Assembly: GCA_947588885.1 (NCBI GenBank)
Contig: CANQAH010000001.1
Location: 6,114-70,113, forward strand
Origin: an uncultured Clostridia bacterium
GTDB taxonomy: Bacteria; Bacillota; Clostridia; TANB77; CAG-508
DNA length: 64,000 nt
Direction of reading: 5' to 3'
Part shown: positions 32,961-53,351 of the stretch, piece by piece
Layout of the letters: every line of letters begins with the position of its first letter
Numbering within the stretch: position 1 is the first letter of the stretch
The notes under the pieces: model-generated
The model's input: the letters and a program-made list of their open reading frames with translations, nothing else
Told to the model about the DNA's origin: nothing
The model's database searches: none
Translations under genes and position numbers: made by a program

Positions 32961-35546
32961 ATGTTACAGTTAAAAGGTATAACTAAAAATTATTTATCAG
33001 GTGAAATGACTGTAAAGGCCTTAAAAGGAATAGATATAGAATTTAGAAAAAGTGAATTTGTATCTATTTTAGGACCAAGTGGTTGTGGAAAAACAACACT
33101 ATTAAATATTATAGGTGGATTGGACAGATATACTGATGGAGACTTAATAATAAATGGAAAATCAACAAAATTATTTAAAGACAAAGATTGGGATGCATAT
33201 AGAAATTATTCTGTTGGTTTTGTTTTCCAAAATTATAATTTAATACCACATCAAACTGTCTTAGCAAACGTTGAACTAGCACTTACTCTATCTGGTGTTA
33301 GTAGAAAAGAAAGAAAAAAGAGAGCGATTAAGGCTTTAGATGATGTAGGTTTAAAAGATCAAATTCATAAAAAGCCAAATCAATTATCTGGTGGACAAAT
33401 GCAAAGGGTTGCAATTGCAAGAGCTTTAGTAAATGATCCAGATATTATATTAGCAGATGAACCAACTGGTGCACTTGATACAGAAACTAGTGTACAAATA
33501 ATGGAAATATTAAAGAAAATATCAAAAAATAAGTTAATTGTAATGGTTACACACAATCCTGATTTAGCGGAAAAATATTCTTCAAGGTTAATAAAAGCTT
33601 TAGATGGAAAAGTTATTAGTGATTCAAATCCATACACAGAAGAAGACAGAAAAAAAGAGAAAAATTTAAAGGCTAAAACTGGAAAAACATCAATGAATTT
33701 CTTTACAGCTTTATCATTAAGTTTAAACAATTTAATGACTAAAAAAGGTAGAACATTTTTAACTGCTTTTGCTGGAAGTATAGGTATTATTGGTATAGCT
33801 TTAATACTTTCATTGTCAAATGGTGTGCAAAAATATATTGATAAGGTTCAAGAAGATACGCTTTCAAATTATCCTCTTACAATTCAAGAAGAAAGTGTAG
33901 ACGCTGCATCAATGATGGAATTATTTATGGATCAGCAAGAAAAAGAATATAATGATGATCAAATTCATTCTAGACAAATGATAGGCGAAGTTTTTGATAC
34001 TATTTCTAAAAAGGTTCAGAGGAATAACTTAACAGATTTCAAAAAATATATTGAAGAAACTGATAATGATGTAAAAAAATATTCTAATGCTGTTCAATAT
34101 GGATATAATATTACTCTAAATATTTATAAGGATGATACTGAAAATGGGGTTGTTCAAGTTAATCCAGCTACTACTTTTGAAAAATTAGGAATGGCAACTT
34201 CATCAGACTCTTCTTCATATGTGATGGGACAATCAATGGATGTATGGCAAGAAATGCTAGATAATCAAGAATTATTAGAATCTCAATATGATGTATTAGC
34301 TGGAAATTGGCCTCAAAATTATAATGAAGTAGTAATATCAGTTAATAAAAATAATGAAGTAAGTGATTATACATTATATTCATTAGGAATTAAAGATCAG
34401 GCTGAGATAACTGAAAAGATGCATAAAATAATGAATGATGAAGAATTAGAAGAACTTGAAGATGAAACATATACATATGATGATTTTATAGGATTAAAGT
34501 ATAGAATTCTTTTGAATACTGATTATTATGAAAAACAAGGAGATATGTGGTTTAGCAGAAAGAATGATGAAGCATATTTGAAAGAAAAAATTGCTAATGC
34601 AGAAGAAATAAAAATTGTTGGTGTAATTAGACCTAAAGAAGAAGCTGCAGCAACTTCAATGAGTGGTATGGGAATTGTAGGATATAAAAAAGAACTTACA
34701 GAACATATTATTAATAAAATCAATGAAACAGAAATTGCAAAAGAACAGTTAGCTAATCCTGAGATAAATGTATTTACTGGTAAAAAATTTTCAGATGCAA
34801 GTTCAAATTCATCAGCTGGGTTTGATTATTCAAAACTTACACCAGAACAACAAGCTTCTATGGCTAATTTAAGTAAAGAAGAACTTGCTGGGGTAATAGC
34901 TTCATACACAGAAATGGCTGATGCAACGCTTGATGATAATTTATTAACTTTAGGAATTTGTGACTTAGATTCACCAGCATCAATTAATATATATCCAATT
35001 GATTTTGAAAGTAAAGATAAAATAACAGATGATATTGAAAGATATAATCAATCAAAAAGAGATGAAGGAAAAGAAGAAGATGTAATTCAATATACTGATA
35101 TGGTTGCAACAATGATGACTTCTGTTACTGTAATTGTAAACATGATTAGTTATGTACTTATAGCTTTTGTTGGTATTTCTTTAGTAGTTTCTTCAATAAT
35201 GATTGGAATAATAACATATATTTCAGTTCTTGAAAGAATCAAAGAAATTGGTGTATTGCGTAGTATAGGTGCTTCTAAGAAAGATATATCAAGAGTATTT
35301 AATGCGGAAACATTTATTATTGGATTTGTTGCTGGACTTATAGGAATTGGTGTAACATTATTACTTAATATTCCAATAAATGTGATTATAAAAAATGTAG
35401 CTGATGTTTCTAACTTATCAAAATTACCACTAGTTGGTGCAATTGTACTTATTTTAATAAGTATGATATTAACAATGATTGCTGGATTAATACCTGCAAA
35501 AGTTGCAAGTAAAAAAGATCCGGTTGAAGCTTTAAGAACAGAATAA
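32961..35546 (+). CDS. Fused ABC transporter: N-terminal ATPase plus MacB/FtsX-type permease with a large extracytoplasmic domain
   Basis: Walker A GPSGCGKTT, signature LSGGQMQR, Walker B ILADEPT. TM1 at ~aa 265, a ~430-aa loop, then three C-terminal TM helices of FtsX type. Confidence 0.85.
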   Translation: MLQLKGITKNYLSGEMTVKALKGIDIEFRKSEFVSILGPSGCGKTTLLNIIGGLDRYTDGDLIINGKSTKLFKDKDWDAYRNYSVGFVFQNYNLIPHQTVLANVELALTLSGVSRKERKKRAIKALDDVGLKDQIHKKPNQLSGGQMQRVAIARALVNDPDIILADEPTGALDTETSVQIMEILKKISKNKLIVMVTHNPDLAEKYSSRLIKALDGKVISDSNPYTEEDRKKEKNLKAKTGKTSMNFFTALSLSLNNLMTKKGRTFLTAFAGSIGIIGIALILSLSNGVQKYIDKVQEDTLSNYPLTIQEESVDAASMMELFMDQQEKEYNDDQIHSRQMIGEVFDTISKKVQRNNLTDFKKYIEETDNDVKKYSNAVQYGYNITLNIYKDDTENGVVQVNPATTFEKLGMATSSDSSSYVMGQSMDVWQEMLDNQELLESQYDVLAGNWPQNYNEVVISVNKNNEVSDYTLYSLGIKDQAEITEKMHKIMNDEELEELEDETYTYDDFIGLKYRILLNTDYYEKQGDMWFSRKNDEAYLKEKIANAEEIKIVGVIRPKEEAAATSMSGMGIVGYKKELTEHIINKINETEIAKEQLANPEINVFTGKKFSDASSNSSAGFDYSKLTPEQQASMANLSKEELAGVIASYTEMADATLDDNLLTLGICDLDSPASINIYPIDFESKDKITDDIERYNQSKRDEGKEEDVIQYTDMVATMMTSVTVIVNMISYVLIAFVGISLVVSSIMIGIITYISVLERIKEIGVLRSIGASKKDISRVFNAETFIIGFVAGLIGIGVTLLLNIPINVIIKNVADVSNLSKLPLVGAIVLILISMILTMIAGLIPAKVASKKDPVEALRTE

Positions 35547-35561
35547 TTATAAAAGGGGAAA

Positions 35562-35592
35562 GGGACAAATCCATATGAATTTGTCCCTTTTT
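35562..35592 (+). terminator. Intrinsic terminator after the ABC gene
   Basis: gggacaaat-ccatatga-atttgtccc followed by ttttt. Confidence 0.8.
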
Positions 35593-35627: not shown

Positions 35628-35735
35628 CTAGAAGTATTAGTTCTGCAAGTTCGTGGTTTAGAGAACAACTGAATTGCTGATTGAAAAAATATAAATCAGT
35701 TCAATTGAGTGAACTTGCAGAATTAATACTTCTAG
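35628..35735. repeat. ~108-bp long inverted repeat between convergent genes
   Basis: The arms ctagaagtattagttctgcaagttc (35628-35652) and gaacttgcagaattaatacttctag (35711-35735) are complementary with one mismatch. The right arm overlaps the stop of the minus-strand gene. Confidence 0.8.
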
Positions 35736-36364
35736 TATATAGCAATAAAAGCTTTAATAACTGTTTGTATGTTAATTTCTTCTGTAGTCCCGTAAACAAT
35801 CTTCTTAAAGAAGTCTGAACTCGTATTACACATTTCATCTATAGCTGTATAAATATTCCAATATACACTAAATATATTTATGTCATATTTATTAGAAATG
35901 AAAGTAAATAGATCTCTTTTACGAAGATTAATATTTTCAGCATCATAAATATAAGCTAAGCAATCTAAAATAAATCTAGTTCCAATTAGATTAGGATTGA
36001 AATGCATCCATTCTAAAACTTTGATAGCGTGAATTTTAAAGTTATATATATTTACTCTTTTACTATATCGTGTTTCTCTAGAAAAAATTTTTAGTAAATT
36101 ACATATTTTTTTAATGGATAATTCTGGAATTTGTGATATAGTTATAGTAATATAATTAAAGTCAAGGAAATGACGTAATATTATGTCCGAGGTTCTAGAA
36201 GTTATTATTACATTTGGTTTTTTCGTTTTGCAAAGTCTAATAACATCTTTTGAAAGTTTACTTGAAAAACCAACCAAAGTGACATTATTACATGATAATA
36301 AAATTGAATTACACAAATTTGATGTATAATCTAAATCATTGCAACAAACAAAAAAACTAATCAT
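35732..36364 (-). CDS. Pseudo-receiver plus Spo0A_C-like DNA-binding domain regulator
   Basis: The C-terminal half (LIGTRFILDCLAYIY...FISNKYDINIFSVYWNIYTAIDE...) follows the Spo0A C-terminal HTH pattern (recalled). The N-terminal half is receiver-shaped but lacks an obvious acceptor Asp (PNVIITSRTSD). Confidence 0.5.
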   Translation of the reverse strand: MISFFVCCNDLDYTSNLCNSILLSCNNVTLVGFSSKLSKDVIRLCKTKKPNVIITSRTSDIILRHFLDFNYITITISQIPELSIKKICNLLKIFSRETRYSKRVNIYNFKIHAIKVLEWMHFNPNLIGTRFILDCLAYIYDAENINLRKRDLFTFISNKYDINIFSVYWNIYTAIDEMCNTSSDFFKKIVYGTTEEINIQTVIKAFIAIY

Positions 36365-36459
36365 AAAAAACTCTCTAAACCTTTCTCTATATATAATTAC
36401 GCATCAAGTATTAAAAAGTAGCGCAAAAAAATAAAAAAATTTTAAAAAAGAGGAAAAAA

Positions 36460-37899
36460 TTGAACGGAGAAATATTAGTAGAAAAATTAAAAGCTATTGA
36501 TGATAAAACTTTTGAAGAAATTTATAAGCAATATTATGAAAAAGTTAAATCCTATGTGACTTCTAAGATTGGCAATGATAATAATATTGAAGATTTAGTA
36601 CAAGAAGTATTTATAAGAGTTTATAAATATTTGGATAGTTATGATAGTAGCAAAGGTAATTTTTATAATTTCATTTTACTTAATGCAAATAATGTAATAA
36701 TTGATTATGTGAGAAAGAAGAAGGTAAGAGAAAATAGAAATTCTGATTGTGACATTGAAACAATTAAAGATGATGATTTCGACTTAGAAGAAATTGGAGA
36801 ACATGCAGAAGAAAAACAAATTTTGAAATCTATAATGGATGAGTTACCAGATACATATAAAGAAATTATAGAATTAATTTATATTAAGGATTTATCAAAT
36901 AAAGCTGCAGCTAATATTATGGGAAAAAATGTTGTAAGTTTCAAATCTACTTTGTACAGAGCTAGAAAGGAATTGAAAAAGAAACTATTTGAAAAATATC
37001 CTGAAATGCGCGATACTTCAATGAAACATACATTAAAGATTATTTTAGTATTAATTTCATCAGTATGCTTATTGAGTGGATTAGTATATGCAACGATTAC
37101 ACTTTATAGAAATGTGTTTATAGGTAATAAATATACGATTTCTGAATTAAATGAAGATATTCCAGAAGAAATGGCTATTGTATCTAGAGAGGATGCAACT
37201 AAGAAGATAAATGATTATTTAGTTGTTCTAGGACATGATGGAAATGTTAACCAAGATGATTTACATTTAATCAGAGATTATCAATTAAGAAAAATTTGTT
37301 GGACTATAAAGAATGAAAAATATTTAATGAGAATTGATGCTGAAAATAATACACTTATTGATTATACTGATTTAGATTTAGAAAATTCAGAAATTAATAA
37401 AGAAAAATTTAAAGAAATATATACTAAATTAGAATTACCTACAGATTATGAGGTTTGTGAAAGCGATAAGAATGGTGATGTAGAAAATATTAAATTAGCA
37501 AAGAAATATGGAGATATTTATAATTATTATGAGAGTGTGACGTTAGCGTTTATTGAAGGTAAATTAAGTTCAATAGTATGTAATAGTTATAATTATGTTG
37601 ATAAAGAAATTTTAATTTCTAAAGAAGAAGCCAAAAATATATTTATAGAAAATGGAGTAAATGCAGATGATATTTATCTAACAATTAAAGAAGTTGATGA
37701 TTTTAGTTATGAAACAGGATCGAATTTAATTGAGGAAATAGATAAAGGTAATTTTGAAATAACAGAAATAGAAAATTTAAAGCCTGATATCAGAAAAGTA
37801 TGGAAAACAGTAGTTAATGATAAAATTTATTTTGTTGATAGTAATACTGGTGAATTTATTAATGGGCTTACAAAATCAATAAGAAATAAGAACAGCTAG
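36460..37899 (+). CDS. Sigma-70/ECF-like factor fused via a single TM helix to an extracytoplasmic tandem PepSY-like domain
   Basis: Region 2 EDLVQEVFIRVYKYL...NNVIIDYVRKK. Region 4 ELPDTYKEIIELIYIKDLSNKAAANIMGKNVVSFKSTLYRARKEL. TM helix LKIILVLISSVCLLSGLVYATITLY. TTG start after AGAGGA. Confidence 0.75.
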   Translation: MNGEILVEKLKAIDDKTFEEIYKQYYEKVKSYVTSKIGNDNNIEDLVQEVFIRVYKYLDSYDSSKGNFYNFILLNANNVIIDYVRKKKVRENRNSDCDIETIKDDDFDLEEIGEHAEEKQILKSIMDELPDTYKEIIELIYIKDLSNKAAANIMGKNVVSFKSTLYRARKELKKKLFEKYPEMRDTSMKHTLKIILVLISSVCLLSGLVYATITLYRNVFIGNKYTISELNEDIPEEMAIVSREDATKKINDYLVVLGHDGNVNQDDLHLIRDYQLRKICWTIKNEKYLMRIDAENNTLIDYTDLDLENSEINKEKFKEIYTKLELPTDYEVCESDKNGDVENIKLAKKYGDIYNYYESVTLAFIEGKLSSIVCNSYNYVDKEILISKEEAKNIFIENGVNADDIYLTIKEVDDFSYETGSNLIEEIDKGNFEITEIENLKPDIRKVWKTVVNDKIYFVDSNTGEFINGLTKSIRNKNS

Positions 37900-37901
37900 A
37901 T

Positions 37902-38513
37902 TTATCTAGCTGTTCCATAATATGTTTTGCTTCCATAAAGTTTAATTGGAGATGTTCCAGCACCAGGAACGTGAGCAGCTGCATTTACTGCTGCATTTCT
38001 GATACTAGATGTTCCTACATATGTAAGCCAAAAATAATAATTAAATGTTTCAGAATCAGCAGTTGTTACACTTCCATTCCAACCTAAGAAACATCTATTT
38101 GAATAACCTGTTGTATGAAATGCATCTGCAAGTTCTGATGAACTAGCACTGTATGATGAATCTATATAAACAAAATCCCAGTTACCTGAAATCATAGTAT
38201 TATCTATTGAATATCCATAATAATCATTGAAATATCCTGTTCCACCGAAAGTATGAACATACATTGCATATCCATTTCCGGTATTTTTTATCCATTCAAG
38301 CATTGAATTTCTTGTTATTGCTCCCATACTTGATGTACAAGGATCATATCCTAATTCACTTAATCCAGCAACAGCATAAGTGCCACAATTTTTATAACTT
38401 GAACTTTTACTACTTGAAAAAACTTTTGCACTTGCTGAAGCATTAACTGTAGAAGATAAAATAGCTAATAAAATGATAATTAAACATACAATTGAAATAA
38501 TTTTTTTATTCAT
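37902..38513 (-). CDS. Secreted G/S/Y/T-rich protein, family unassigned (possible papain-fold cysteine peptidase)
   Basis: Signal peptide ending VNASA. Candidate Cys in YKNCGTYAVAG and His in AMYVHTFGG. The start overlaps the upstream PepSY gene by 8 nt. Confidence 0.35.
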   Translation of the reverse strand: MNKKIISIVCLIIILLAILSSTVNASASAKVFSSSKSSSYKNCGTYAVAGLSELGYDPCTSSMGAITRNSMLEWIKNTGNGYAMYVHTFGGTGYFNDYYGYSIDNTMISGNWDFVYIDSSYSASSSELADAFHTTGYSNRCFLGWNGSVTTADSETFNYYFWLTYVGTSSIRNAAVNAAAHVPGAGTSPIKLYGSKTYYGTAR

Positions 38514-39300
38514 TTACACAGTCACCTCCAATTACATTATTGTCAGAAGCATCTATGTATACTATTGAATTATCAGATGTTTGAATAACCCAAGATGTAT
38601 GAATAGATTTGTCTTCATTTGATTTATCATAAAAATTGTTTGCTTTTTCCATACTTAAAGATGCAGAAACAATTTCTGAAGTATCAATTCCTAGATTTTT
38701 GGCAGCAGATGATATTGCATCTTCTTTACTTACAGAAACAGGAGAATCATCATGACCTTCATTAAATACAGTTAAAGCAACAATTTCATTGTTTTCAGGA
38801 ATAAAAAATACTTTTACTGATTCATATTTATTGTAAACACCATTATAATTTTTTTCAAAATTTGCTTGCCAAATTTCATCATCAAATCTGGCTAAATAAG
38901 ATAGCTCATAATCAGAAGGCAAGTTTAACTCTTTATATTTATTTTCGATCATAGTTCTTGCTTGTTCTTCAGTAGCAACTGTAGTGGTTGATACAGGACT
39001 GGTATTTGTACAATATATGCCAACTAGATTATTGGAAGCGTCTAAGTCAATCATATATTTTTCTGTACAAACTCTATACAAATCTTTTTCTCTAATATCA
39101 TCATAAACTACATTTGTTGATAGAATAGAATTAGTTGAGTTTAATGTTTTTAATATATCTAAAGATATATTTTTCATTTCACTTGTTACTACTTTGGTTT
39201 TTTCTGTAGGGGCTGAAGATGTTGTAGCATATACTATTACAGATGTTAATAAAACAATTAATACAAATGAAATTAAAATTACTTTTTTCTTTAATTTCAT
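38506..39300 (-). CDS. Membrane-anchored or secreted tandem PepSY-like protein, paralogous to the sensor domain of the sigma fusion
   Basis: ATG at 39300 with a GGAGG RBS. Blocks EKYMIDLDASNNLVGIY, YKELNLPSDYEL, NKYESVKVFF, VSKEDAISSAAKNLGID and IVYIDASDNNVIGG align with aa ~270-470 of 36460..37899. Confidence 0.65.
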   Translation of the reverse strand: MKLKKKVILISFVLIVLLTSVIVYATTSSAPTEKTKVVTSEMKNISLDILKTLNSTNSILSTNVVYDDIREKDLYRVCTEKYMIDLDASNNLVGIYCTNTSPVSTTTVATEEQARTMIENKYKELNLPSDYELSYLARFDDEIWQANFEKNYNGVYNKYESVKVFFIPENNEIVALTVFNEGHDDSPVSVSKEDAISSAAKNLGIDTSEIVSASLSMEKANNFYDKSNEDKSIHTSWVIQTSDNSIVYIDASDNNVIGGDCVNE

Positions 39301-39547
39301 AATTACCTCCATTAAATAATATAATAAATATAGCTATATTTGATATAAGAATACTATAAAAAAATTTTTTGAAAAAATAAATTAGAAACAAAAATAGTAT
39401 AGAAAATTTAAAGGCAAGAAAAGGAAAAATCATGTAAAATTCTGGAAAAAATATGAGAACAAAGAAATTGTTGCAAAAAATATATAGTGCACATAAAAAA
39501 TAAAAATAAAAGTTTTCTGTAAACTAAAAATGTATACTAATTAAAAC

Positions 39548-39984
39548 TGTGAATAACTATGTCGAAAAATATCGATGAAATAGGTTATTAACAAAGTTAT
39601 CCACATTATCCACAATGAACAAATGTGAATGGAAAATATTACAAATAGTTTACGTAAAAGATAAAGATGCTGAAATTACTAGTGTTTGAACGATATACTT
39701 CTGTAATGAGTGTTGAATTTTGTTTGAAATATCAACAGTTGCCCAAATTATCCACAGATCATTTTAAAGAATTATTTCAATACAAAACGAGATTGGTTGA
39801 ATAATTGGCCAAATATTGCAAGAAAAATATTGGTATGATAAAATTTAAATGCATATAATTTGTAGATTGAATTTATGTTCACGAATTGAATTGTAGAACT
39901 AGTTTTATTAGTTATTGTATGCAGTAGAGGATCAATTCGATTCTCTACTAAATTTTTTATTATGGTGAAAACAAATGTGGATAA
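39548..39984. promoter_or_regulatory. DnaA-box cluster: four perfect TTATCCACA boxes plus one 1-mismatch box
   Basis: TTATCCACA at 39597-39605 and 39606-39614 (abutting) and at 39748-39756. Reverse-complement TGTGGATAA at 39976-39984. TGTGAATAA at 39548-39556. The region 39434-39974 has no ORF of 60 aa or more. Confidence 0.7.
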
Positions 39985-40661
39985 GTTATTTTAAGCAAAT
40001 ACAAAACAAATATAGTATGGGGATAAGTACAAAAGAACCTTTAGTTATAAGACTTGATGGAAAAAATGTGACTAAAAATAAAGATATAGATTTATTTAAT
40101 AATTATAAAGGAAGTTTTGCAGAACAATTGGAAAGGACAGTAGAGTATTTTACTAGTAAGTATCATTGTTTAGCAATATTTGGTTCAGATGAAGTGAGTT
40201 TCGTTTTTACTAATCCAATGTCTGTAATTGAAGATTTGGATAAAGAAAAATATAATAGATCAAATGAGATAATAGCTTTATTTTCACAATATTTTTTCAA
40301 TTATTTTAATAATTTAAACAGAAATATGCTTATATTTTGGCATGGGAAATGTTTCTCAATTAATAATACAAAAGTAAACTCATATTTGAAATATAGATCA
40401 AGAATTATAAAAAATGTAATGACAACATATTTTTTAAAGAGAAAAAATGCTTATATTGGAGTTGAAAAATTAGAAGATAGAGAAGAAAGATGCAAACAAT
40501 TTCCTAAAGAATATGAAAGATTGAAAGATATTCAAAATGGAATTTTGTATTATGATGGCCAAAGAATAGATTTAGAAGAATTTTATAAAGGAAAAATTGT
40601 GAATATTAATAAAATTGATGATAATGCATTTGATGAGTTATTTAAATCACTTTTAGACTAA
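39975..40661 (+). CDS. Thg1-like protein (tRNA-His guanylyltransferase family, 3-prime to 5-prime polymerase; bacterial TLP)
   Basis: PLVIRLDGKNV and IFGSDEVSFVF match the two Thg1 catalytic-carboxylate motifs (vRlDGr.F and SDEiS). The start is uncertain: 39975 with a weak GGTGA RBS, or 40017. Confidence 0.55.
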   Translation: MWISYFKQIQNKYSMGISTKEPLVIRLDGKNVTKNKDIDLFNNYKGSFAEQLERTVEYFTSKYHCLAIFGSDEVSFVFTNPMSVIEDLDKEKYNRSNEIIALFSQYFFNYFNNLNRNMLIFWHGKCFSINNTKVNSYLKYRSRIIKNVMTTYFLKRKNAYIGVEKLEDREERCKQFPKEYERLKDIQNGILYYDGQRIDLEEFYKGKIVNINKIDDNAFDELFKSLLD

Positions 40662-40676
40662 AATTATTGAGAAAAT

Positions 40677-40705
40677 TTGACATTTACGCAAAAACATATT
40701 AAAAT
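40677..40705 (+). promoter_or_regulatory. Promoter of the glyQS T-box leader
   Basis: TTGACA-N17-TAAAAT. Confidence 0.6.
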
Positions 40706-40721
40706 AGTTACATATTTTATA

Positions 40722-40906
40722 TTGCGTTGATAAAGAGTGAATATATTTTACTTATCTACAGAGAGCTAGAGACGGTGGAAACTAGTGTTAAGAAATATAG
40801 GATGGAACTTTGGAGCAAATTTTTAATTAAGGTGGATTTTAAATCAATTAGGGTGGAACCGCGGAAGATAGAGCTTTCGTCCCTTGTGGGATGGAAGCTC
40901 TTTTTG
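40722..40906 (+). promoter_or_regulatory. T-box riboswitch leader, GGA (Gly) specifier
   Basis: Stem I starts ttgcgttgataaagagtg. Specifier GGA at 40804-40806 is followed by A-ctttggagcaa. T-box attaGGGTGGAACCGCGg (UGGA, fits a U73 discriminator). Terminator agagctttc...gaagctcttttt. Confidence 0.85.
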
Positions 40907-40929
40907 ATGTTAAAAAATCACTATTTTGC

Positions 40930-41000
40930 ACTGGTAAATTTTAATCAAGAATTCTTAATGAACATGTATAATTTTTAGAAATTTTGATAGCAATTTACTT
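40930..41000 (+). repeat. Degenerate solitary family A unit in the glyQS leader
   Basis: ggtaaattttaatcaagaat...attttgatagcaatttac parallels cgttaaattgcaatcaaaaat...attttgattgcaatttgcc. The loop core is decayed. Confidence 0.45.
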
Positions 41001-41075: not shown

Positions 41076-42458
41076 ATGGTAAAAAACATGGAAGACATTG
41101 TTAATCTTTGCAAAGCAAGAGGTTACATTTATGCAGGCTCTGAAATTTATGGAGGACTTGCAAATACTTGGGATTATGGACCTTTAGGTGTTGAATTAAA
41201 AAATAACATCAAAAATGCATGGAGAAAAAAATTTATACAAGAGAGAAATGATGCAGTGGGAATTGATTCTGCAATAATAATGAATCCTGAAACTTGGGTA
41301 GCAACTGGACATGTGGCTACTTTCGCAGATCCATTAATTGATTGTAAAGCTTGTAAAACTAGACACAGGGCAGACAAATTAATTGAAAATTGGGCACAAG
41401 AAAATGGAAAAGATATTTGTGCAGATGGTATGAGCAATGAAGCTTTAATTAAATACATTGATGATAATAATATTAATTGCCCAAATTGTGGAAAACATGA
41501 TTTTACTGGAATTAGACAATTTAATTTGATGTTTAAAACTTTTCAAGGAGTAACTGAAGATTCAACTTCAACAGTTTATTTAAGACCTGAAACTTGTCAA
41601 GGTATTTTTGTTAATTTTAAAAATATTATAAGAACATCAAGAAAAAAAGTTCCAATGGCTATTGGACAAATTGGCAAAGCTTTTAGAAATGAAATTACTC
41701 CAGGAAATTTTATATTTAGAACAAGAGAATTTGAACAGATGGAATATGAATTTTTCTGTCAACCAGGAACTGATTTAGAATGGTTTGAATACTGGGAAAA
41801 ATATTGTAGAGATTTCTTATTAAATTTAGGAATGGAAGAAGATAATATTAGATATAGAAAACATGCTAAAGAGGAACTTGTGTTTTATAGTAAGGCAACA
41901 ACAGATATTGAATTTTTATATCCATTTGGATGGGGTGAATTATGGGGAATTGCTGATAGAACTGATTATGATTTATCAAGACATCAAGAACATTCAAAAG
42001 AAGATATGTCATATTTAGATCCTGAAACTAATGAAAAATATATTCCTTATGTAATTGAACCATCTGTTGGTGTTGATAGACTAGCATTAGCTTTCTTATG
42101 CAATGGCTATGAAGAACAAGAATTAGGTGAAGGAGATTCGAGATTAGTATTACATTTACATCCTGCTATAGCACCATATAAAGTTGCAATTTTACCTTTA
42201 TCTAAAAAATTAAGTGACAAGTCACAAGAGGTATATAACAGACTTTCAAAATCATTTATGTGTGATTATGATGAAGCAGGAAGTATTGGAAAGAGATATA
42301 GAAGAGAAGATGAAATTGGTACACCATATTGTGTAACAGTTGATTTTGATACATTAGAAGATGAATCAGTGACTATAAGAGATAGAGATACTATGGAACA
42401 AGTTAGAGTCAAAATTGATGAGTTAGAAGATTGGCTTAACGAAAAAATAAAATTTTAG
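41076..42458 (+). CDS. glyQS: Glycine--tRNA ligase (dimeric alpha2 type)
   Basis: 460 aa. [46 protein letters not shown] and EPSVGVDR motifs. AGGAGG RBS. Confidence 0.95.
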
Positions 42459-52344: not shown

Positions 52345-53133
52345 TTAAAAATCTAAATTTTTTATAATTAAACTTAATGAGGCATCATTAGATTTACACT
52401 CATCTATGACAGACTTATTATCTACTTTAAGATTTTCAATTTGCTCTTTTATATTATTAACTTCTTGAGAATCAGAAATTTTAATAATTAAAGAATTAGG
52501 AAAAATATTGCTATCGCCAGAATAACTTTCCAACAAGTCTTTATTATCTTCAAATTTTTCCATTAACTCGTCAAGTGCTTCTTGATTTGTATAAACTTGT
52601 ACTTCTACTACACCATCTATTTTACTAACAATGTCTTTAGCTTTTTGAATTTCTGATTCAGTAGTTCCATAATTAAAAAAAGCTTGTATTTGAATGTTTG
52701 AATTATTTTTTAAGAAATCACTATAAATTTTTTGAGTTTTTTCAATTTTTTCAATATAATTTTTATTCTGGAATTTTTTTATAAATTTATCAGTTTTTTT
52801 GGTATCAATTGTTAGTGAAAGTACATTTGTCTTTTCTGGAAACAAATCTATTATTTGCTGTTTGATGTTAGAACCATATTTGTTTCCCAAAGAACTATTA
52901 TTTAGATGGTTCCCAAAGTTATCTTTAGAGACTAACTCTACATCTTTGATATAGTTAATTGAAGAAAATTGTTTTATATAGTTATCAATATCATCAGTGT
53001 ATATATCTTTTATATAAACAGCTATAGTCTCAAATTCTTTGTCTTTTTGCAAATTAGAGTATATAAAGATACTAGAAATGATTGCGAGTATAATTAATAT
53101 TAATATAATTAAAATTATTTTTTTATTTTTCAT
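52345..53133 (-). CDS. Membrane-anchored protein with two FtsX-extracellular-domain-like repeats (no permease part)
   Basis: ATG at 53133 after AAGGAGG. TM helix. IKDVELVSKD and IDGVVEVQVYTNQEALDELMEKF...IFPNSLIIKISD resemble the FtsX ECD pattern (recalled). Confidence 0.4.
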   Translation of the reverse strand: MKNKKIILIILILIILAIISSIFIYSNLQKDKEFETIAVYIKDIYTDDIDNYIKQFSSINYIKDVELVSKDNFGNHLNNSSLGNKYGSNIKQQIIDLFPEKTNVLSLTIDTKKTDKFIKKFQNKNYIEKIEKTQKIYSDFLKNNSNIQIQAFFNYGTTESEIQKAKDIVSKIDGVVEVQVYTNQEALDELMEKFEDNKDLLESYSGDSNIFPNSLIIKISDSQEVNNIKEQIENLKVDNKSVIDECKSNDASLSLIIKNLDF

Positions 53134-53351
53134 GTGAAACCTCCTTATTTTTCTATTATACAAGGAATTGGTTTATAAATCAAGAAATAGAAAAAATTGG
53201 AATATTTTTTAAATTTATATATAAAATAAATATGTATAAAGTGAGACAAATTAAAAATAAAAAAGTTCATAAAATGAATTGAAATTTAAAAAAAAGTGTA
53301 ATATAATCGTAACGGATTTGCAAATAACTTGAAACAGAAAGGATGATTCTG

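Follow-up and report, generated by a model that had tools for sequence, protein, structure and literature searches.

Four neighbouring genes in the window analysed here (the whole stretch of 64,000 nucleotides from an uncultured Clostridia bacterium) form, judged by comparison of their loci, a conserved unit, which encodes a regulator (Reg), a sigma factor fused to a membrane helix and an outside domain, a secreted paralog of that domain (Par) and a secreted caspase-fold protein (Sec; Table 1). The arrangement of this cassette is identical in 20/20 loci examined in full, 17 of which were returned by a scan of species-representative genomes, all of them MAGs of uncultured gut Clostridia. It is present in every locus of the window's clade with enough room for four genes and is held while the identity of the sigma protein to that of the window drops to 26%. 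The original prediction had known of no characterisation of this gene combination; its neighbourhood is conserved, and no description of it was found in the searchable literature.

Table 1. Features of the cassette and its surroundings (window positions)
Feature	Position	Strand	Description
Reg	35732..36364	-	210 aa; degenerate (pseudo-)receiver N-domain and Spo0A_C-like DNA-binding domain; divergent from sigma gene
A-rich element with GC core	36413..36439		AAAAAGTAGCGCAAAAAAATAAAAAAA; GTTGCGCAA in most relatives; divergent Reg-sigma intergenic region
Sigma fusion gene	36460..37899	+	479 aa; sigma2, sigma4, ~20-aa linker, TM helix, triple-PepSY-like ectodomain
TM/signal-anchor segment of sigma fusion	37039..37095	+	aa 194-212, IILVLISSVCLLSGLVYAT; ends G207-x-x-Y210-A211
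Sigma ectodomain	37096..37896	+	aa 213-479, ~265 aa; predicted extracytoplasmic; Par paralog (BLASTP, hhalign)
Hairpin	37890..37915		11-bp stem common to 3' ends of convergent sigma and Sec genes
Sec	37902..38513	-	203-aa secreted caspase-fold protein; canonical His/Cys dyad absent (F89, S120 there)
Par	38506..39300	-	264-aa secreted protein; signal peptide to V-Y-A at aa 25; three PepSY-like modules
Palindrome	39327..39342		AAATATAGCTATATTT; immediately upstream of Par ribosome-binding site
Conserved non-coding block	39476..39756		upstream of Par; DnaA-box 9-mers and 0A box
DnaA-box 9-mers in this block	39548-39556 (minus strand), 39597-39605, 39606-39614, 39748-39756		
Perfect Spo0A-type 0A box in this block	39561-39567		TGTCGAA

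The sigma fusion starts with TTG behind the ribosome-binding site AGAGGA, and its sigma part is of the ECF type (TIGR02937 sigma70-ECF, 97.8 bits), with Pfam matches to Sigma70_r2 at aa 21-88 (55.4 bits) and to Sigma70_r4_2 at aa 120-172 (42.9 bits). Together with the single hydrophobic segment of the protein, at aa 194-212 (KD19 2.35), these scores bear out the earlier view that sigma regions 2 and 4, one TM helix and an outside domain lie in one polypeptide. Given that the flanks of the helix are net positive on the N-terminal and net negative on the C-terminal side, an N-in/C-out topology is predicted, which agrees with the proposed outside location of the C-terminal domain.

The true start of Par is the ATG at 39300, with GGAGG just ahead, giving the ORF 38506-39300. 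Its proposed full-length likeness to the outside domain of the sigma fusion reflects true paralogy: the two share 27% identity over 243 aa (BLASTP, E 2e-10), and their family profiles align with a probability of 99.3% and E 1.3e-20 over 249 columns (hhalign), spanning sigma 187-474 and Par 3-268 and thus including the TM helix and the signal peptide. The most conserved block of Par is kept in the ectodomain (KKYGDIYNYYESV vs EKNYNGVYNKYESV). Par had been described as anchored; however, its hydrophobic segment ends in V-Y-A with the Ala invariant (53/53), so that a cleaved and secreted protein is probable instead. The AF2 model of Par (pLDDT 88.7) consists of three modules of a helix and four strands, and its best PDB match in Foldseek is the YpeB C-domain (5boi, E 2e-9), followed by M4/M36 propeptides and YycH. 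On the basis of this model, Par and the paralogous ectodomain are PepSY-like by fold, as had been guessed, but not by Pfam, in which it is remote family members that score above the PepSY cutoff (28-35 bits). Par has 84 homologs. Par resembles YpeB in fold; keeping the partner enzyme SleB inactive is a role reported for YpeB (bioRxiv 10.64898/2026.06.01.729290).

Sec carries an N-terminal signal peptide, and its gene overlaps that of Par by 8 nt (38506-38513), as had been noted for this secreted 203-aa protein. The overlap recurs in most of the 19 other loci tabulated and suggests translational coupling. Sec has zero Pfam or NCBIfam matches, and a weak Peptidase_C14 match came from one remote homolog; its AF2 model (pLDDT 89) matches SAVED-CHAT and caspases (caspase/CHAT fold, Foldseek E 1e-5). 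The guess of a secreted enzyme was therefore right as to the type of fold but not as to the catalytic residues. While distant relatives possess the classic His-Gly and Asp-Ala-Cys dyad and remote homologs retain the His in 117/121 and the Cys in 127/133 cases, both residues are replaced in all 104 cluster representatives of the window's clade (57-98% identity), the His by F/L/Y/V and the Cys by S/A/G/T. This loss makes Sec probably a pseudo-peptidase, most likely one that acts by binding, and renders the formerly proposed proteolytic release of sigma by Sec unlikely in the window's clade. The clade has invariants of its own (H87, D97, D113, C141 and the C-terminal R203), and the retained H87 and C141 may allow a non-canonical activity. 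Identities to the window proteins in the 19 other loci (Sec 54-90%, Par 34-77%, sigma 26-61%) indicate that Sec is more tightly constrained than its two neighbours.

Outside the clade, distant relatives are often Par-Sec fusion proteins, and sigma fusions also occur in L051 and L055. An unfused version was found in one metagenome locus, L049, where a sigma factor accompanies a membrane protein with PepSY, a genuine response regulator that includes Spo0A_C, Par and a Sec whose dyad is intact. In L036-L044, a divergent ECF sigma factor, which stands alone and has its own, different anti-sigma-like protein, adjoins a secreted PepSY-caspase fusion. Such fusions, and sigma versions that are unfused or otherwise different, mark the cassette as a compacted derivative of a broader extracytoplasmic signalling system in Clostridia. 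At the core of this system, Par (secreted, triple PepSY) is paired with Sec (caspase fold), the two being encoded by overlapping, apparently translationally coupled genes or as one fused polypeptide, much like a prodomain beside its peptidase. Three changes set the window's clade apart from L049: the ECF sigma and its PepSY-type membrane partner are covalently linked, without an intervening anti-sigma domain; the phospho-acceptor pocket of the Spo0A-like response regulator has been lost; and Sec has lost both catalytic residues.

The regulator had been described as receiver-shaped, without an obvious acceptor Asp and fused to a Spo0A_C-like HTH, and the family data agree. The Spo0A_C score of the window's Reg (17.9 bits) is below the Pfam cutoff of 25, whereas orthologs exceed it (42.2 and 36.5 bits); the family profile matches the Spo0A C-domain 1fc3 (E 2e-5), and it has a weak match to the CheB receiver (E 0.058). 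In the full-length alignment of the family with the Response_reg and Spo0A_C protein of L049 (hhalign, E 6e-17), Reg of the window has C-N in place of the acidic pair D-D and T-S at the acceptor Asp. Orthologs are present in 19/20 loci, the copy in the distant member L008 being shorter (182 aa).

The palindrome reported to be common to the stop codons of the sigma and Sec genes folds into a hairpin (-16.5 kcal/mol, z -4.67, 0/200 shuffles as good), spans both convergent stops and is terminator-like on the minus strand; equivalents exist in relatives, including those in which the sigma ORF stops earlier, and it is probably a bidirectional terminator. The A-rich element, found in the intergenic regions of 7/7 loci compared, may act as a promoter or operator; CGCAAAA was seen in 12/19 regions upstream of sigma and in 0/19 upstream of Par. 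Conversely, ATATAGCT/TAGCTATA is present in 14-15/19 Par-upstream and 0/19 sigma-upstream regions, and the palindrome ahead of Par is a candidate for an operator or an element of the 5' UTR. Motifs of the conserved block further upstream recur widely (GTGGATAA in 18/19 loci, TTATTCAC in 16/19, TTCGACA in 17/19), the window has five perfect TTATCCACA sites, all but one of them within 39597-39984, and the block still adjoins Par in L008, where glyQS lies elsewhere. The block could serve to regulate the Par-Sec operon, its link to the cassette being putative. No promoter motif was shared between the 19 sigma-upstream and 19 Par-upstream regions compared, and thus there is no sign of a feedback loop.

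We hypothesize, with confidence somewhat short of even, that sigma is released by binding-controlled intramembrane proteolysis. The sigma fusion would be a type-II membrane protein whose tethering keeps sigma inactive, and its ectodomain would bind Sec in competition with free Par; that Sec binds both is suggested by the fusion proteins, the gene coupling and the paralogy. Occupancy by Sec would set the access of signal peptidase to the conserved G-x-[VTSA]-Y-A, where the TM helix ends on the outside, and a site-2 protease would then cut the signal-peptide-like stub to free sigma into the cytoplasm. Once secreted, Sec would take the part of a co-receptor or ligand whose availability reports a condition of the envelope or environment, such as a host or bacterial factor bound in the former substrate cleft, and the Par:Sec supply would be set by Reg and the DnaA-box/0A-box block. 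In the putative site-1 motif, none of the 21 sigma fusions departs from G, Y and A, the -3 residue is V/T/S/A in all 21, and in alignments the motif coincides with V-Y-A, at which the Par signal peptide is predicted to be cleaved. However, the further hydrophobic residues (TITLY) and the K/R at +3 to +6 that follow Y-A disfavour signal peptidase, and the motif may alternatively be left over from the Par signal peptide, or matter for structure or for the site-2 protease. The proposed gating would resemble that of RsiV and RsiP, in which ligand binding gates site-1 cleavage; the site-1 protease is signal peptidase in both (RsiV, PMC4183432; RsiP, PMC8844934). The fusion itself can be likened to the sigma/anti-sigma hybrids IutY and ECF52, released by RIP (PMC8999054), but lacks an anti-sigma domain in the stretch from sigma region 4 to the TM helix.

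It is unlikely, in our view, that Sec has kept enzymatic activity through a non-canonical site (e.g. H87 with C141 or S119/S120), acting as site-1 protease with Par as inhibitor or decoy. Since the caspase-type dyad is intact in the wider family, and since a PepSY prodomain is usually broken down by the peptidase it belongs to, ancestral systems such as L049 may use Sec proteolysis. An active Sec would also fit its very strong constraint and the invariance of H87 and C141 (104/104), specific to the clade without canonical residues. Yet both canonical residues are missing throughout that clade, 24/104 representatives have Ala or Gly in place of the nucleophile, S119 is the small residue normally ahead of the Cys, and C141 would, in the predicted strand order, be the first residue of beta-5, at the sheet edge opposite the active-site end of H87. 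Similarly doubtful is a separate cell-envelope module of Par and Sec, with PepSY holding or maturing its partner (as YpeB with SleB), belonging to the sigma regulon or co-located, in which the ectodomain shares the ligand of Par and Sec is not a regulator. ECF sigma genes usually adjoin their own targets, the sigma factor and PepSY-caspase fusion of L036-L044 look like regulator and target, and L013 and L015 have Par-Sec with no sigma nearby; against this, a promoter motif common to the sigma-upstream and Par-upstream regions was not found. Moreover, the Par block kept in the ectodomain and the coincidence of sigma fusion with lost Sec catalytic residues (window clade, L054/L055) are easier to explain if Sec binds both.

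We consider it quite improbable that release is not regulated at all, the TM helix being a signal peptide cut constitutively during export and control being purely transcriptional (Reg, DnaA/Spo0A boxes). The products of such a cut would be another free PepSY protein and a sigma factor tagged with the signal peptide, which signal-peptide peptidases would clear or set free. The n-h-c layout (positive n-region, h-region of ~13 residues, helix-breaking Gly, V-Y-A c-region), the conserved boxes upstream of Par and the missing anti-sigma domain would agree with it, but TITLY and the conserved K/R after Y-A, unlike the Par signal peptide, suggest an uncleaved anchor, and we know of no precedent for exporting a 265-aa domain solely to free a sigma factor. 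Hardly credible, and strongly disfavoured, is that the four genes are no functional unit and are conserved through genome relatedness and synteny (glyQS, trpS, obg, aspS and greA are nearby). Although the housekeeping flanks are largely syntenic too, they vary (upstream ABC-FtsX or greA, downstream glyQS or a 128-aa ORF and trpS), whereas order, orientation and Par/Sec overlap of the four genes stay constant. In addition, two of the genes are mutually paralogous, Par-Sec fusions are known, and unrelated contexts again show an association with sigma. A membrane-tethered ECF sigma factor combined with a secreted copy of its ectodomain and a probably dead caspase fold looks like a hitherto undescribed form of sigma control.

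The genes for the regulator Reg, the sigma fusion, the secreted protein Sec and Par, a free PepSY-like paralog of the sigma ectodomain, form a cassette that exceeds background synteny, since the four-gene pattern stays among loci whose flanking genes differ: one flank holds ABC-FtsX or greA, the opposite flank glyQS or a different gene. All 20 loci with enough sequence harbor a divergent Reg gene, the sigma fusion, a convergent Sec gene and a Par gene overlapping Sec; in a single locus the sigma fusion is duplicated in tandem. The original prediction had named conservation of the gene neighbourhood as a point to be checked, and the same arrangement was indeed found in these loci despite their varying flanks. 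A scan of species-representative genomes located Sec in 17 species, all of them uncultured Clostridia MAGs from the gut of human, rabbit, deer and sheep, including one closed 1.8-Mb chromosome. Of the four proteins, Sec is conserved best, with 54-90% identity to the window protein in 19 other loci versus 26-61% for the sigma fusion and 34-77% for Par.

Positions of the cassette genes, the regulatory elements and neighbouring features in the window
Feature	Position	Strand	Remarks
ABC-FtsX gene	32961-35546	+	861 aa
Terminator hairpin of the ABC-FtsX gene	35559-35590		strong
Reg	35732-36364	-	210-aa ORF
Sigma fusion	36460-37899	+	479-aa ORF
Hairpin	37890-37915		spans both convergent stop codons; -16.5 kcal/mol, z -4.67
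Sec	37902-38513	-	203-aa ORF
Clade-invariant Sec residues	38255-37905	-	H87, D97, D113, C141, C-terminal R203
Par	38506-39300	-	264-aa ORF, overlaps Sec
Conserved block upstream of Par	39476-39756		DnaA-box 9-mers and 0A box; conserved in 16-18 of 19 loci
DnaA-like box TTATTCACA	39548	-	
Perfect Spo0A 0A box TGTCGAA	39561-39567		
Perfect DnaA boxes TTATCCACA	39597, 39606, 39748, 39976 (minus strand)		
Element with promoter-like and terminator-like parts	39830-39955	+	TTGGTA-18-TATAAT at 39830-39859; hairpin and T-run at 39923-39949
Thg1-like ORF	39975-40661	+	228 aa
Promoter-like site	40677-40705		strong
T-box leader	40718-40887	+	upstream of glyQS
ORF within the leader region	40727-40978		83 aa
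Terminator hairpin	40870-40901		
glyQS	41076-42458		
Sec-profile match	52345-53163		E 5e-4

The sigma fusion matches Sigma70_r2 (55.4 bits, aa 21-88) and Sigma70_r4_2 (42.9 bits, aa 120-172) of Pfam as well as Sigma70_ECF (30.5 bits) and TIGR02937 (97.8 bits, cutoff 42.9). According to Pfam, region 3 is absent, with only ~30 aa between sigma2 and sigma4, and the possession of regions 2 and 4 without region 3 or 1.1 is that of an ECF (group 4) sigma factor. While these ECF models scored well, no equivalog cutoff of NCBIfam was reached, the best scores being those of SigM, BldN and SigZ with 88-91 bits against cutoffs of ~200. The only hydrophobic segment of the protein (aa 194-212) has a positive N-terminal and an acidic C-terminal flank, a pattern from which an N-in/C-out topology and thus an extracytoplasmic location of the ~265 C-terminal residues is predicted; the C-terminal domain behind the segment measures 267 aa. 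The original prediction of sigma regions 2 and 4, one TM helix and an outside domain in a single polypeptide is therefore upheld by the domain scores and the single segment, and this architecture is kept in 21 of 21 relatives. The search with the sigma fusion retrieved just 16 full-length or near-full-length relatives, the candidate list being swamped by generic ECF sigma factors. Two tandem 490-aa sigma fusions with identical TM-region sequences lie between Sec and Reg in a related MAG (L033:3321-6871).

With the end of sigma4 near aa 176 and the start of the TM segment at aa 194, the stretch between sigma4 and the membrane is just ~20 residues long, so that the fusion has no anti-sigma domain; neither a FecR N-terminal, a zinc-finger nor a RskA domain was detected there with Pfam and NCBIfam. 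The order of sigma factor, TM segment and extracytoplasmic sensor is shared with sigma/anti-sigma hybrid ECFs such as IutY of Pseudomonas putida (ECF243) and the actinobacterial ECF48/52/53, e.g. SCO4117; IutY has been demonstrated to be activated by regulated intramembrane proteolysis, and the same has been suggested for ECF52 (PMC8999054). In these hybrids, however, a recognisable FecR-type or zinc-finger anti-sigma domain lies between sigma4 and the membrane, and the ectodomain is of the FecR or carbohydrate-binding type, whereas the window fusion has a predicted triple PepSY ectodomain and belongs to Clostridia. Moreover, Par, Sec and Reg have no counterpart in the IutY/ECF48/52/53 systems.

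The sigma ectodomain is, as judged by sequence similarity, a paralog of Par. BLASTP aligned the two with 27% identity across 243 aa (E 2e-10), and comparison of the family profiles gave a probability of 99.3% (E 1.3e-20), the 249 aligned columns taking in the TM helix of the one and the signal peptide of the other, which corroborates the block-by-block alignment of a 264-aa protein with the outside domain noticed earlier. Because GGAGG precedes position 39300 and homologs begin there, this ATG is a more likely start of Par than the in-frame ATG 39312 upstream. The AF2 model of Par (pLDDT 88.7, 53-sequence alignment) comprises a signal peptide followed by three modules of a helix and four strands, i.e., tandem copies of the helix on a four-stranded antiparallel sheet that defines the PepSY fold. 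The top PDB match in Foldseek was the triple-PepSY C-terminal domain of YpeB (5boi, E 2e-9), followed by the propeptides of vibriolysin MCP-02 (E 6e-5) and of an Aspergillus M36 peptidase (E 4e-4) and then by YycH. Pfam PepSY (PF03413) did not match the window's Par or the sigma ectodomain at E<=1, but among the remote matches of the Par profile, Par of locus L049 (35.1 bits) and a protein of locus L015 (28.3 bits) pass the PepSY cutoff of 24. The Par search itself provided 84 cluster representatives. The term PepSY-like, a guess in the original prediction, is thus justified by the fold match to YpeB and propeptides and by the remote members recognised by Pfam, although the direct search of the window proteins failed. 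A direct Pfam or NCBIfam identification of Par, Sec and the C-terminal domain of the sigma fusion was discarded, as none of them gave a PepSY or peptidase match; both the PepSY and the caspase assignments rest on structure prediction and remote homologs.

Sec has no match in Pfam or NCBIfam, and a sequence profile search of the PDB yielded nothing meaningful. Its AF2 model (pLDDT 89.1, 45-sequence alignment) retrieved SAVED-CHAT (8tl0, E 8.5e-6) as well as caspases-3/6/7/8, CED-3 and GPI transamidase (E 1e-5 to 1e-3) with Foldseek, and a TM-score of about 0.5-0.56, which denotes moderate rather than high similarity, places it in the caspase/hemoglobinase fold. The Sec search provided 104 cluster representatives, and 154 relatives emerged when 1.84 billion representative proteins were searched with a profile. 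The distant ones carry the clan-CD signature of a hydrophobic strand followed by His-Gly, together with G-N-W-H-F-V-F-L-D-A-C. The remote members P0210 and P0207 match Peptidase_C14 of Pfam below cutoff (E 0.011 and 0.18). In an HMM-guided alignment, the catalytic His at position 89 is present in 117 of 121 remote sequences and replaced by F, L, Y or V throughout the clade of dyad-less relatives that includes the window (n=104); the catalytic Cys at position 120, found in 127 of 133 remote sequences, is substituted by S (79), A (19), G (5) or T (1). Sec hence lacks both the His after beta-3 and the Cys of D-A/S-C after beta-4. Because both residues are replaced in 104 of 104 clade members and mostly kept remotely, Sec is predicted to have the caspase fold but no longer the canonical dyad. 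A match of the Sec profile elsewhere in the window covers a hydrophobic N-terminus and was judged to be noise.

Five Sec residues listed in the table are invariant in the clade, and the same positions are variable or different in dyad-intact relatives, with mostly H, K or R at 113, mostly Ala at 141 and mostly Trp or Tyr at the C-terminus. The clade-invariant residues suggest that a functional site has newly arisen or that the charges of a contact have been swapped. The clan CD peptidases (caspases, CHAT, orthocaspases) have the same alpha/beta fold, and remote Sec members share with them HG after beta-3 and D-A-C after beta-4. In contrast to these, the Sec proteins are small (~175 aa when mature), secreted and bacterial, and are partnered with PepSY proteins and ECF sigma factors. 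The window clade resembles catalytically dead caspase paralogs such as c-FLIP and pseudo-orthocaspases, which act by binding.

The genes for Par and Sec overlap by 8 nt, as the original prediction had stated for the paralog and the secreted protein, and the two are fused in relatives. Many remote Sec homologs of 430-530 aa have Par-like PepSY repeats directly N-terminal to the caspase-like domain, and at locus L015 the pair is split, with a PepSY protein immediately upstream of Sec. These fusions argue that Par and Sec operate as a pair, comparable to a prodomain and its peptidase. Together with the 8-nt overlap, they lend indirect support to the idea that Par may bind or inhibit Sec. A similar layout is known for the FTP/PepSY propeptides of M4/M36 metallopeptidases such as vibriolysin MCP-02 and Aspergillus fungalysin, which Par matches structurally (3nqy, 4k90); their partner is of the zincin fold, whereas that of the family described here has a clan-CD-like (caspase) fold. 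In the YpeB-SleB system of Bacillus spores, YpeB binds, stabilises and holds inactive its secreted partner, and Par can be likened to YpeB by its structure, its N-terminal hydrophobic segment, its three PepSY modules and the adjoining partner gene. However, SleB is a lytic transglycosylase and Sec has a predicted caspase fold, the gene order in the window is Par followed by Sec with an overlap, and the sigma factor of the window carries a Par paralog as its ectodomain. Unlike for YpeB-SleB, no evidence for a link of Par and Sec to sporulation was obtained.

A metagenome scan with dyad-intact members revealed an ECF sigma gene adjoining the module in most loci. It is a divergent standalone gene in L036-L044, and L039, the one locus examined, has a different anti-sigma-like protein; in L054 and L055, a convergent 482-aa sigma fusion lies beside a Sec that has kept His-Gly and carries Ser in place of Cys. 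An unfused counterpart of the window cassette is present at L049, where a gene for a 183-aa sigma factor is overlapped by that of a single-pass protein of 344 aa, whose ectodomain is Par-like and which shares the TM motif with the sigma fusion (VGIVYAGTIIYKNIW). This locus also encodes a 304-aa Par (PepSY 35 bits), a regulator with Response_reg and Spo0A_C domains, and a 211-aa Sec with intact His-Gly and D-G-C. As L049 and other remote loci hold unfused or dyad-intact versions, the window cassette is a derived form: the sigma factor became joined to its membrane partner, the receiver degenerated and the peptidase lost its dyad. Two further contexts were observed among dyad-intact relatives. 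At L051:4999-6615, a 538-aa ECF sigma-TM fusion is followed by a 508-aa PepSY-caspase fusion with intact dyad; its ectodomain of ~330 aa is not Par-like and has no Pfam match, and is a further sensor type tied to the PepSY-caspase module. At L013:578-9361 and L014, a 489-aa PepSY-caspase fusion and a second 314-aa PepSY protein are accompanied by an ABC ATPase with a 681-aa FtsX permease, by response regulators of the OmpR type and by part of a histidine kinase, a context that is BceAB-like and has no sigma factor.

The fourth protein, Reg, had been described as receiver-shaped, with no obvious acceptor Asp, and fused to a Spo0A_C-like HTH, a description with which the comparisons of its family agree. 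The profile of the Reg family matches the DNA-binding domain of Spo0A (1fc3, E 2e-5), and Spo0A_C scores 17.9 bits in the window protein against a cutoff of 25 and 36.5-51.5 bits in orthologs. Response_reg of Pfam has no match in the window protein. The Reg family aligns over its full length with the L049 regulator (E 6e-17), which scores 41 bits for Response_reg and 51.5 bits for Spo0A_C. Since the acidic pair D-D is replaced by C-N and the acceptor Asp by T-S in this comparison, Reg is classified as a pseudo-receiver. A hypothetical target of Reg is the 0A box within the conserved block upstream of Par, for which it is a candidate binder. The cluster of DnaA boxes extends over 39476-39984; four of the five perfect TTATCCACA sites of the 64-kb window (G+C ~27%) lie within 390 bp, and the block remains beside Par even where glyQS is not a neighbour; the GC skew does not switch there, so the block is probably not oriC. 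The palindrome common to the stop codons of the sigma and Sec genes, likewise predicted, was recovered as a stable hairpin. A shared ECF-type promoter was sought and rejected: when k-mers were counted in 19 loci, the regions upstream of the sigma and Par genes had no GC-containing k-mer in common, for which reason an autoregulatory ECF promoter was not identified, and a scan for the sigma-70 consensus performed no better than shuffles.

Several features surround the cassette. The ABC-FtsX gene directly upstream of Reg encodes an ABC ATPase and an FtsX-type permease (MacB-like) in a single polypeptide and ends at the terminator hairpin; it was rejected as a member of the system, being present in some related loci only, with greA in its place in others. 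The Thg1-like ORF (tRNA-His guanylyltransferase-like, 3'-5' polymerase; 26.6 bits, cutoff 29.2) is unique to the window and looks like an insertion, because in related loci the DnaA-box block is followed by the glyQS leader with no gene in between. Just upstream of it, the element with promoter-like and terminator-like parts, which has no Rfam match, could give rise to a ~90-nt transcript. The T-box leader (85.1 bits, E 1.4e-18; Rfam gathering score 93) has a strong promoter-like site and a terminator hairpin, and the 83-aa ORF is probably spurious since the leader occupies this region. The 64 kb contain no tRNA gene, and none of the Rfam families reaches its gathering threshold there. The cumulative GC skew climbs almost monotonically, consistent with the window being part of one replichore with genes mostly on the leading strand.

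A clue to how the sigma factor might be released is the end of its TM segment, which reads G-x-[V/T/S/A]-Y-A in all 21 fusions with invariant G, Y and A. The Y-A motif aligns with the V-Y-A that closes the signal peptide of Par, in which the Ala is invariant (53 of 53), and fits the -3/-1 rule of signal peptidase I with a helix breaker at -5. Unlike in Par, it is followed by more hydrophobic residues and a conserved K/R, and it could be plain inheritance from a Par-like ancestor. The motif is a candidate signal-peptidase site at the outer TM end. The anti-sigma factors RsiV and RsiP have signal peptidase as their established site-1 protease, which cuts in dependence on a ligand bound by the ectodomain (PMC4183432, PMC8844934). 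SigV-RsiV and SigP-RsiP of Bacillus and C. difficile have a single-pass regulator with the signal-peptidase site at the outer TM end, ligand gating and completion by site-2 cleavage (PMC4183432, PMC8844934). RsiV, however, is a separate anti-sigma factor with DUF4179/DUF3298, and its ligand is lysozyme, a host enzyme, whereas the window sigma factor itself bears the TM segment and the PepSY ectodomain, its presumed ligand is a self-encoded pseudo-peptidase, and cleavage is a prediction from the invariant G-x-x-Y-A. The RsgI-SigI SEAL regulators of Clostridial species and Bacillus are also single-pass, with a juxtamembrane domain that sets site-1 cleavage, and SEAL-PepSY fusions were reported (PMC10556640); their sigma factor is of the SigI type and that of the window of the ECF type. 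SEAL autoproteolysis, defined by an Asn-Pro scissile hairpin in the juxtamembrane SEAL domain (PMC10556640), was discarded for the fusion, as no conserved Asn-Pro hairpin lies by the membrane (N-P occurs in only two of 21 fusions, L028 and L031) and no SEAL structure was among the top 50 Foldseek matches of Par.

We hypothesize here that Sec would bind Par and, competitively, the sigma ectodomain, that occupancy of the ectodomain would govern whether signal peptidase can reach the Y-A site, and that a site-2 protease would next free the sigma factor, Sec thus acting as a secreted pseudo-enzyme co-receptor. As a whole, this mechanism appears plausible to us, if somewhat short of probable. Sec might instead still be active by non-canonical means and cut the ectodomain, which we consider unlikely: H87 and C141 would be the residues for an alternative dyad, but the strand topology of the predicted model speaks against it. 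It is about equally doubtful that Par and Sec are just an output or a neighbour of the sigma factor with no role in its regulation. Constitutive processing of the sigma fusion with control at the level of transcription seems more improbable still, and that the cassette reflects mere synteny is hardly credible given its constant pattern between varying flanks. The full proposal, in which the sigma factor sits on a cleavable signal peptide and a self-encoded secreted pseudo-caspase gates the access of signal peptidase to G-x-x-Y-A by occupying either the PepSY ectodomain or its free decoy paralog, is speculative and rather unlikely.

Taken singly, ECF hybrids tethered to the membrane, PepSY domains and dead paralogs of caspases are known. 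In the literature search, however, we found no description of a sigma factor that is joined to a triple-PepSY sensor and lacks an anti-sigma domain, of a free PepSY paralog coupled to a caspase-fold pseudo-peptidase, of a degenerate Spo0A-like regulator in such a cassette, of PepSY prodomains on caspase-fold peptidases or of the underlying PepSY-prodomain caspase-like family. This secreted family, for which neither Pfam nor NCBIfam has a model, numbers at least 154 representatives when clustered at 50% identity, and its intact members bear PepSY prodomain-like repeats, which stretches the long-standing, thinly tested idea of PepSY as a peptidase regulator beyond metallopeptidases. For ECF control without an anti-sigma domain, tethering together with PepSY would give the paradigm a new sensor type, and a pseudo-enzyme ligand with a paralogous decoy may represent a new partner logic. 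If the proposal is true, the gating logic evolved by inactivation of an unrecognised family of secreted caspase-fold peptidases with PepSY prodomains, and both this family, whose active members in other Clostridia are linked to ECF sigma factors, and the use of a dead protease as an extracellular ligand that releases a sigma factor would be new. The series from an unfused cassette with active dyad and real response regulator to a fused one with dead dyad and pseudo-receiver offers ready comparisons for experiments. The hosts are uncultured gut Clostridia of humans and herbivores with small genomes, and the cassette is among their few conserved envelope-signalling systems.
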